Both the position numbers and the translations under genes were made by a program. From an uncultured Elusimicrobia bacterium (lineage in GTDB: Bacteria; Elusimicrobiota; Elusimicrobia; 2-01-FULL-59-12), in contig OY969767.1 in the NCBI GenBank assembly GCA_963702895.1, positions 128,001 through 192,000 on the forward strand: a stretch of DNA of 64,000 nt, read 5' to 3'. Under the pieces are notes generated by a model, which ran no database searches, was not told the DNA's origin, and saw nothing but the letters and a program-made list of their open reading frames with translations. This document shows positions 2,152-3,522 of the stretch, one piece after another. Position 1 is the first letter of the stretch. Each line of letters begins with the position of its first letter.

Positions 2152-2294
2152 ATGACAAACAGCCGTTAGGCTGAATTGTTTGGTTGCCCATGATCTCCCT
2201 CTCCCGCGGAACGTGGGAGAGGGCGGGGGTGAGGGCAGGTCTACGTCGAAAGGTGAGGTTGTGCCCTCACCCTTCACCCTTGTATGTCAAAATT

Positions 2295-2445
2295 CTTCTG
2301 AAGGTAGTAGACCGTCCTACCCTAGGCCCGGTGTTCGCCGAGACTGTGGAGAGCAAGGTCGCTACGTTCAGAATGCGGTTAAGCCCGAACAGTTGCCGGA
2401 GCCGCGCCAGCCGCGAGCTCGGATGATGCAAGGTCGGGCTGTACT
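2295..2445 (+). ncRNA. Putative bridge RNA of IS110-A (ends approximate)
   Basis: Stems TTCTGAA/TTCAGAA and AGCCCGA/TCGGGCT enclose loops with target-matching (TCCTACCCT, GGAGAG) and donor-matching (ACAGTTGC, ATGCAAG) segments. Confidence 0.8.
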
Positions 2446-2461
2446 GAATAAGAGGCCAATC

Positions 2462-3415
2462 ATGTCTGAAGAAATCTGGGCGGGAGTTGATATTTCGAAA
2501 GCACTATTGGAAACGGCAGTTGTGCCAGGCGGCCAACGTTGGCGGACCGCAAACAACCGGCTTGGAATTCGGCAGATCGTGCGTCGTTTGGCGACGATGC
2601 AAGTCGCCGGCGTAGTGATTGAAGCCACGGGCGGTTGGGAAAGACCACTGGTTAAGGCCTTGAACAAGGCGAGGATAGCGACTTCGGTGATCAATCCGCG
2701 ACAGGGGCGCGATTTTGCGAAAGCCACAGGGCGCTTGGCTAAGACCGATGAGATCGACGCCGGTGTGTTGGCCGATTTTGGTCAGAAACTCAAACCCCCA
2801 GCGCGACCACTGGCCGATGATCTGACCTTAGCGCTGCAGGAGCTGATGAATCGTCGACGAGATTTGGTGGAAATGTTGGTCCAGGAGCGCAACCGTCGGC
2901 AGCATGTGTCGGTCGCGATGAAGACTAAGATTGAACAGCACATCGCGTGGCTAGAAGAGCAACTGGATGAACTTGATGATCAGATCGATAAGGGACTGGG
3001 GGACCACCCTGATTTGAGTCAAAAACGGGATACGCTTCGCAGCGTCCCTGGGGTTGGCCCGGTCTTGGGGCGGACCCTCGTCGCGGAACTCCCCGAGCTT
3101 GGGAAATTGAACCGACGCCAGATTGCTAGCCTGGTGGGCGTGGCCCCTCTAAACTGGGATAGCGGTGTCATGCGGGGAACTCGGCATATATGGGGAGGGC
3201 GCTCCAGTGTGCGCTCGGCACTTTACATGGGAGTTTTGACAGCCATCCGCATCAACCCTGTGATCAAAAAGTTCTATCAACACTTGATTGCCAATGGGAA
3301 AAAAACCAAAGTCGCGCTGACAGCATGCATGCGTAAACTTCTGATTATTTTGAACACCATGGTCAGAACCAACACCCATTGGCATTGTGCAGTTCTGGAG
3401 GTTTCGCATGCCTAA
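2462..3415 (+). CDS. IS110-family DEDD transposase/recombinase
   Basis: GVDISK, IEATG, KTDEIDA (DEDD), PGVG, WDSG serine motif; ATG 2462 follows AGAGG RBS. Confidence 0.95.
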
Positions 3416-3522
3416 AAGACCCCTATTGACAACACAGTTGCTCTCCCACCTGGCGGCGGGAGAGGGGACTAAAAAGTGCAGCCGGCTTAGACGGACAGAG
3501 CCGCTTTGCTGAAGATTCCGGG

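Follow-up and report, generated by a model that had tools for sequence, protein, structure and literature searches.

The question raised by this locus is whether an insertion sequence can be seen to carry its own programme for choosing a target. The window, by which we mean the whole stretch of 64,000 nucleotides that was analysed (positions 128,001 to 192,000 of contig OY969767.1, assembly GCA_963702895.1, from an uncultured Elusimicrobia bacterium), has at 2279-3442 on the plus strand an IS110-group insertion sequence of 1164 bp, counted with the CT at each end. A first-pass annotation had proposed that its left end encodes a readable bridge RNA directed at a repetitive extragenic palindrome (REP), with the architecture known from IS621 (CT core, REP targeting), and that view is supported here by the kinship of the recombinase, by a conserved fold and by covariation of the guides. 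We are highly confident, from sequence comparison, that the element is intact, recently active and IS621-like in its working, the activity being indicated indirectly by three identical copies.

A blastn search with the 1164 bases against the 2.72-Mb genome to which the window belongs gave three full-length matches at 100% identity and no others (E up to 1e-5). Copy 1 is the element at 2279-3442. Copy 2 is on the minus strand at 51969-53132 of the window (genome 179969-181132), and copy 3 is beyond the window at genome 1125546-1126709; identity among the copies ends precisely at the CTs. In all three copies there is a CT at the left junction (2279-2280 in copy 1) and again at the right (3441-3442), which is the single core dinucleotide, without terminal inverted repeats, expected of the IS110 group. 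Also as expected for the group, a long noncoding left end of 181 nt (2281-2461, plus strand), which encodes the predicted bridge RNA and is delimited by its fold and by covariance model matches, is combined with a short right end of 27 nt (3416-3442, plus strand) that closes with the left donor ACAGTTG and CT. The flanks of copy 1 are CTTCACC on the left and CTCCCACC on the right, the site being CTTCACC-CT-CTCCC, while copies 2 and 3 have flanks that are alike, CCTAACC and then CTCCCGCC, giving CCTAACC-CT-CTCCCGCC for copy 2 and a site of CCTAACC-CT-CTCCC for copy 3. The CT at both junctions and the targets of copies 1 and 2 had been given in the first-pass annotation just as we see them, and every string that it quoted, including the CTs, both stems, the four loop segments and TTGACA at 3426-3431, was found in its place. 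The element was absent from 60 related genomes, in which there was one partial match at 52%. The contigs of one DNA sequencing run (X1) include a 151-nt piece equal to the left junction of copy 1 and a 347-nt piece equal to the left junction of another copy; no joints were seen in these contigs, and X1 is possibly the source sample and hence not independent support.

The gene between the two ends (2462-3415, plus strand) encodes 317 amino acids followed by a stop codon, and there is a Shine-Dalgarno-like AAGAGG at 2450-2455 on the same strand, 6 nt upstream of the ATG. The protein matches PF01548 (DEDD_Tnp_IS110; 1.8e-19, 70.5 bits) and PF02371 (Transposase_20; 1.9e-17, 63.8 bits), and a phmmer search against all PDB chains gave matches only to the ISCro4 transposase (9t56, 4e-42) and the IS621 transposase (8wt6, 9e-42), with both alignments spanning recombinase residues 6-300. 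The composite active site of IS621-type recombinases is made up of acidic residues and a serine (Hiraizumi 2024, PMC11208158), and D10, E54, D96, D99 and S234 align with those residues of IS621. In an alignment of 40 relatives E54, D96, D99 and S234 are invariant and D10 is nearly so. The protein has the N-terminal DEDD RuvC-like domain and the C-terminal Tnp domain with catalytic serine that are found in the IS110 group, and judged by these alignments it is an IS110-family DEDD/Tnp protein related to the solved bridge recombinases of IS621 and ISCro4. A frame of 411 amino acids from 2180 was considered as the gene and rejected, as it is the recombinase frame staying open across the left end.

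The relatives available for comparison are of two kinds. A large protein search gave two relatives at 68% identity (P0002 and P0003), compared as proteins only, and then a big cloud near 55%. A scan of genome contigs with a single protein query gave only 3 relatives, and when contigs of genomes and metagenomes were scanned there were 83 loci, with 35-54% protein identity. These homologs are single metagenomic contigs, with element ends deduced from motifs rather than from empty sites. One further locus (L005) was dropped as a partial match on the minus strand, and the 69 of the 83 loci with at least 190 nt upstream of the start codon were aligned together with the window element. In this alignment the CTTGTAT that starts the left end is conserved, the first stem-loop is a conserved scaffold around two variable segments, and the second is almost constant (AGCCCGA-ACAGTTGC ... 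GCAAG-G ... GGGC).

With regard to the fold, 2279-2461 taken alone gives two stem-loops with internal loops at -69 kcal/mol (z -2.74, with 1 of 200 shuffles equally good), including both of the stems on which the two-stem-loop proposal had been based. The target-binding stem-loop (2296-2373, plus strand) has basal stems 2296-2302/2367-2373, 2304-2308/2361-2365 and 2310-2313/2357-2360 around its internal loop, the outermost pairing TTCTGAA (2296-2302) with TTCAGAA (2367-2373); the donor-binding stem-loop (2382-2440, plus strand) has AGCCCGA (2382-2388) and TCGGGCT (2434-2440) as its outer stem. An alignment of the left ends of homologs had been suggested as a check on this fold, and it proves to be conserved across 68 members with many compensatory changes. 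For this purpose the left ends were trimmed to the two stem-loops, leaving out L003 (35% identity) and L035 (short in the alignment), and for the resulting 68 rows RNAalifold gave 25 pairs in 5 helices, with compensatory double changes at 20 of the 25 pairs. Of the 1700 cells, 93.8% form standard pairs and 238 have changes on both sides; shifting the 3' partners by 1-3 columns lowers these figures to 32.5-46.9% and 28-50. As the structure was predicted from the alignment in which it is counted, the comparison is biased against the shifted versions. Even so, a pairing gap this wide and such a variety of pair types (UA 29, CG 25 and GC 7 at one pair, for example) are hard to explain otherwise, and none of 500 column shuffles matched the alignment in any of five fold measures. 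Helix 2 has 11 pairs, 9 of them with double changes, and 96.5% of cells paired; helices 4 and 5, which form the donor stem-loop, have 94.9% and 93.0% paired. The family-conserved part of the target stem-loop begins at about 2300. A covariance model (R1) built from the 68-row alignment, in which the element is one of the training rows, matches only the three left ends in the whole 2.72-Mb genome, at 81.9 bits each. The left end has then what is looked for in the IS110 group, a predicted RNA with two stem-loops, internal loops and covariation.

By the code described for bridge RNAs, a left guide has the top-strand sequence of the left target or donor together with the core, and a right guide is the complement of the core followed by the right target or donor (Durrant 2024, PMC11208160). 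In the first loop of our element the left target guide is predicted to be UCCUACCCU (DNA TCCTACCCT; 2315-2323, plus strand), lying in the alignment columns that match the left flanks of homologs, and the predicted right target guide is GGAGAG (2348-2353, plus strand), which covers the core and 4 more bases and is the reverse complement of CT-CTCC in all three sites. In the second loop the left donor guide ACAGUUGC (DNA ACAGTTGC; 2389-2396, plus strand) is identical to 3434-3441 in the right end, and the right donor guide AUGCAAG (2426-2432, plus strand) pairs with CT-TGTAT with one G:T wobble; the guides of this loop match the element's own right- and left-end termini. At its ninth base, a position that is variable across the family, the left donor guide has C against the T of the core. 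These four segments are the ones that had been picked out from the single sequence by the first-pass annotation, and they coincide exactly with the columns that co-vary with the flanks and termini of homologs. In 20000 dinucleotide shuffles of the 181-nt left end ACCCT was present in 2188, GGAGAG in 2181, ACAGTTGC in 22 and a 7-mer able to pair with CTTGTAT, one wobble being allowed, in 881; all four matches together were present in none of the 20000, the product of the frequencies being about 6e-7.

Guides of the homologs were taken from the alignment columns beneath the element's four strings and compared with sequences found independently of those columns. To define the left flank, the closest CTTGTAT upstream of the loop was located, allowing 1 mismatch at most, and the 7 bases ahead of its CT were taken; this could be done for 65 rows. 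The left guide shifts its register by one base within the family, and real and control pairs alike were scored in three registers, of which the best was kept. The left target guide matches the left flank at a mean of 5.09 of 7 positions, as against 3.13 for mismatched pairs. The right flank was taken as the 5 bases past the core that follows the right-end terminus (63 rows), and here the right target guide matches at 5 of 5 positions in 45 of the 63 rows, at 4 in 10, 3 in 4, 2 in 3 and 1 in 1, the mean being 4.51 against a null of 1.52. On neither side did any of 2000 permutations reach the real value, although the homologs are related by descent and the permutation counts overstate significance accordingly. 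The guide-target covariation among homologs, the lack of which would by its own terms have told against the first-pass annotation, is therefore present. For the first loop the case is clear at the level of the family, and the element's own match is partial yet inside the family range, its left-target score being low to middle with 20 of the 65 rows at 4 or below.

For the donor loop, an exact repeat of the initial 7-mer of the left donor guide is present within 250 nt past the stop codon in 62 of 70 rows, a count that is partly circular in that the right-end termini were located by searching with this guide itself. The repeat is mostly 8 nt past the stop, and of the 65 rows that have a match 62 have CT next to it; this fixed position, together with the CT, argues that the match is genuine. 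Among the 62 exact matches 19 are non-consensus, including ACAGTCG (7), ACGGTTG (4), ACCGTTG (2), ACGGTAT, ACAGGTG, ACAATCG, ACAGATG, ACGGCTG and ACCATTG. The remaining rows comprise 3 that are one base off or truncated and 5 without a match, three of which have at most 17 bases past the stop. On the right side, GCAAG of the right donor guide and the CTTGTAT at the start of the left end are conserved throughout the family.

A further feature, additional to the four segments, also fits. Under the handshake rule (Hiraizumi 2024, PMC11208158) the bases 3' of each right guide should pair with the non-cognate partner. In the target loop the predicted handshake guide CAA (2354-2356, plus strand) is complementary to donor positions 5-7 (TTG) and not to the target CC, and in the donor loop the corresponding G (2433, plus strand) pairs with the C at target position 7 rather than with G7 of the donor. 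Of 65 rows in the family, 63 have pairing between donor position 7 and the base just 3' of the right target guide, and 61 between target position 7 and the base just 3' of the right donor guide, but as these positions are nearly constant the counts are mostly to be read as agreement and not as covariation.

The sequence also has the consensus for the junction promoter that had been proposed, with TTGACA placed 18 bp from TG-T-CAAAAT when the ends are joined. The putative -35 box TTGACA is in the right end (3426-3431, plus strand), where it is conserved in the right ends of homologs, and the extended -10, TGT-CAAAAT, is in the left end (2285-2293, plus strand), with the 18-bp spacing existing in the circle only. 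A script-built circle junction has exactly one sigma-70-like site, with TTGACA, 18 bp and CAAAAT and with TG one base upstream, while a consensus scan of the integrated stretch 2100-3600 found none. The 63 junctions compared (from the element and 62 homologs) share the consensus CTTGACA-nn-CAAG-ACAGTTG / CT / TGTATCTT, in which a -35 box is separated by 17 bp from TATCTT. Transcription would probably start near 2300, where the family-conserved basal stem begins (alignment column 11); a start there lies four bases inside the outer stem TTCTGAA, of which only part may then be in the RNA.

The following cycle would account for what we observe, namely the anatomy of the element, its conserved fold, the covariation of guides with targets and donors, the intact catalytic residues, the three copies in one kind of site and the promoter consensus. 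On excision the two ends would be joined through the CT that they have in common, and this junction would assemble a sigma-70 promoter from TTGACA of the right end, 18 bp, and TGT-CAAAAT of the left end. Transcription from this promoter would begin at about 2300, giving first a bridge RNA, some 150 nt long, from the left end, and next the recombinase gene. The first internal loop (UCCUACCCU and GGAGAG) would pair with the two strands of the REP target ACC-CT-CTCC and the second (ACAGUUGC and AUGCAAG) with the element's own junction ACAGTTG-CT-TGTAT. The DEDD/Ser recombinase would then swap strands at CT, and after top-strand exchange the bases 3' of the right-hand guides (CAA and G) would pair with the non-cognate partner. 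We infer three parts of this scheme: transcription, binding of the RNA by the protein, and the recombination.

There are several points that weigh against the cycle as drawn. No RNA sequencing run containing the stretch was found among the runs searched, and an Rfam scan of 1800-4000 (E up to 10) gave no relevant match, the hits being chance-level microRNA and small nucleolar RNA. The partial circularity of the donor count has been mentioned. The element's -35 box is 4 nt nearer to the core than in the family and only 13 bp from TATGTC, the element therefore having to use the downstream hexamer as its -10. The target guides are also imperfect at the real sites: in the left target guide only ACC-CT matches contiguously (5 of 9 positions), of the 7 non-core positions 3 match in copy 1 and 4 in copies 2 and 3, and the right target guide matches at 4 of 5, with a U:C mismatch at the fifth position of every site. 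By plain match at the 12 non-core positions the occupied sites score 7, 8 and 8, and among genomic CT sites 8 score 10, 99 score 9 and 715 score 8; ranking of genomic CT sites by plain guide match was tried as a predictor of insertion and rejected, as it does not single out the occupied sites. Lastly CCCCACC sites have the best in-register fit, 5 of 7, and despite this none of the 6 such hairpins (7 copies of the 16-mer context) is occupied.

The last three points are best considered with the sites themselves. The REP belongs to a modular repeat family that is spread over the genome, 12 being in the window, with 83 copies of GCCCTCACCC and 108 hairpins of the form CTCTCCC-N6-14-GGGAGAG (both strands), combined with a long inverted repeat GGGTGAGGGCA...TGCCCTCACCC. 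Three of the 108 hairpins are occupied by the element, and 17 unoccupied ones have ACC ahead of the CT. The inverted-repeat module flanks all three copies; at copy 1 the left flank (2227-2278, plus strand) comprises GGGTGAGGGCA (2227-2237), TGCCCTCACCC (2262-2272) and then the left target CTTCACC (2272-2278), and the right flank (3443-3466, plus strand) is the remainder of the palindrome, CTCCCACC-TGGC-GGCGGGAGAGG. Both CCTAACC sites are occupied, with no unoccupied copy, and one of the four CTTCACC sites is occupied, the three empty ones being identical to the target of copy 1.

This pattern of occupancy leads to the alternative that survives best, in which the bridge-RNA element is as described except for a slight mis-programming of its target loop, one A being missing, and the site is set mainly by ACC-CT-CTCC plus some feature of the REP module (hairpins or a bulged base) and not by full complementarity. 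The filling of both CCTAACC-CT-CTCCC sites, with one of four for CTTCACC and none of six for the better-fitting CCCCACC, speaks for it, as does a second recombinase locus. Locus L080 (590-1907), from a metagenomic relative with 45% protein identity, sits in gcccccaCCCTAACC-CT-CTCCCC, which is the same position of a near-identical REP, and its guide UCCUAACCCU is perfect for its own site, CCTAACC-CT-CTCCCC; the element's UCCUACCCU is the same string minus one A, so that the distal left arm of its guide is, as we read it, one base out of register with its preferred site CCTAACC-CT. The two share the right guide UGGAGAG, although the left end of L080 is longer, at about 265 nt, and by these strings two recombinases just 45% identical appear to be aimed at the same REP position by near-identical loops. 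A partial comparison can be made with P0002, in which the gene call begins within the left end, residues 1-57 being an N-terminal extension that is the translated bridge-RNA region. This extension retains ...VKPEQLPEP... of the donor loop while the left-guide codons differ, which suggests the same right guide with a different left guide, codon degeneracy barring any finer reading.

There are precedents in the published systems. For IS621 the natural target is reported to be one base off that encoded by the loop, and some off-targets tolerate insertions in the target (Durrant 2024, PMC11208160); for ISPpu10 a target-borne stem-loop is reported as a second specificity determinant (bioRxiv 10.64898/2026.03.19.712850); and half-match insertion by IS621 is reported in a further preprint. 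In view of the IS621 tolerance of mismatches and insertions and of the ISPpu10 stem-loop, it is not surprising to find an imperfect left guide. In contrast, there are only three insertion events and hence no statistics on site preference, the 20 of 65 family members that likewise match at 4 of 7 or fewer make the element no outlier, and the one-base variation of register in the family blurs any count. We regard a mis-programmed loop as possible but rather doubtful, and the associated suggestion, that insertion in nature proceeds with a bulged base in the target or depends in part on the hairpins of the REP module being recognised, as similarly tentative.

Far less probable is an origin of the three copies by duplication or recombination of DNA flanked by REPs, which would make them inert relics and not the products of recent transposition. 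All three are within one repeat family, which makes homologous recombination conceivable, but identity ends exactly at CT on both sides with different flanks beyond, the open reading frame is intact with all five catalytic residues kept, and there are three unoccupied sites identical to the target of copy 1. That the left-end structure is merely a 5' untranslated regulatory fold, with its matches to flanks and ends due to chance, can be virtually dismissed, as the want of an RNA run with the stretch among those searched is all there is in its favour, and against it are the shuffles, none of which had all four matches, and the covariation of guides with flanks and termini over about 65 homologs.

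Returning to the bridge-RNA element as first set out, its relation to known systems can be summarised from the parts of the published accounts used here. With IS621 of E. coli (PMC11208160, PMC11208158) it shares the DEDD/Ser recombinase (9e-42), the CT core, the long left and short right ends, a predicted left-end RNA with target loop then donor loop, left guides as top strand and right guides as complement, handshake bases 3' of each right guide, a candidate promoter split over the circle junction and natural targets in REP palindromes. It differs in several respects: it has no DNA similarity to any E. coli genome searched (a distant blastn search with the whole element gave zero matches), and its target is another REP family (ACC-CT-CTCC). 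The right target guide of IS621 is core plus 2 (4 bases) as against core plus 5 in the family of the element, and the IS621 RNA has a 5' stem-loop before the target loop, which the element lacks if its start is near 2300. ISCro4 (9t56) is the best PDB match (4e-42, residues 6-300), the comparison covering the protein. ISPpu10 and ISPpu9 of Pseudomonas putida (bioRxiv 10.64898/2026.03.19.712850, PMC12288879) are likewise IS110 elements with bridge RNA that insert into REP, and while the target stem-loop adds specificity in ISPpu10, the sites of our element also lie between two hairpins of the REP module; however in ISPpu10 the left target is part of a 5' stem-loop, whereas here the core and right target are the 5' arm of the palindrome. 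The IS1111 group with its right-end seekRNA (named in Durrant 2024, PMC11208160) shares the recombinase superfamily and two-loop guide logic, but has the guide RNA in a long right end and longer subterminal repeats, in contrast to the 27-nt right end and predicted left-end RNA of the element.

Bridge RNAs have been predicted in 85.7% of the IS110s in ISfinder, mostly in the left end, and REP targeting, CT core and junction promoter have all been reported already (Durrant 2024, PMC11208160). An exact-string look-up of the protein N-terminus and the junction in 7 text supplementary files of that paper gave 0 occurrences. The element is thus a clean new example of the mechanism described in 2024, and not a new mechanism.

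The genome has other IS110-family recombinase genes. There are 13 matches to PF01548, of three or four types by score and frame length, and a second recombinase type is in the window at 24527-24979 (plus strand; genome 152527-152979), with a 356 amino acid frame and 5 identical-scoring copies in the genome. Model R1 gives no match at the ends of the other IS110-family types. Another inserted element, starting CCCACTTACGACCGTGGGACC... right after ...GCCCTCACCCTTTACC-CT or similar, is in the same REP module adjoining the position of our element, and is present outside the window at genome 647355, 1571801, 465136, 480405, 234044 and 120893. Copy 1 is about 80 bp downstream of a convergent frame pair at 3523-5139 (minus strand), of 113 amino acids and a membrane protein of 420 amino acids, which by eye resemble a PII protein and an ammonium transporter.

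For the organism, the element accounts for part of the repeat and insertion sequence landscape of the genome, three of its 13 IS110-family genes being copies of it. For the family, understanding of the mechanism is unchanged, and what is added is a natural bridge recombinase with a compact predicted RNA of about 150 nt, together with about 65 metagenomic relatives in which guides, targets and donors can be read from sequence, as raw material for mining of orthologs for genome editing. The imperfect left guide provides a small natural test case for tolerance of mismatches and bulges and for structure-assisted targeting. If insertion does use a bulged base or the REP module, then a plain base-pair code would understate both how loosely natural bridge-RNA targeting reads the distal left arm and how far it depends on target structure.

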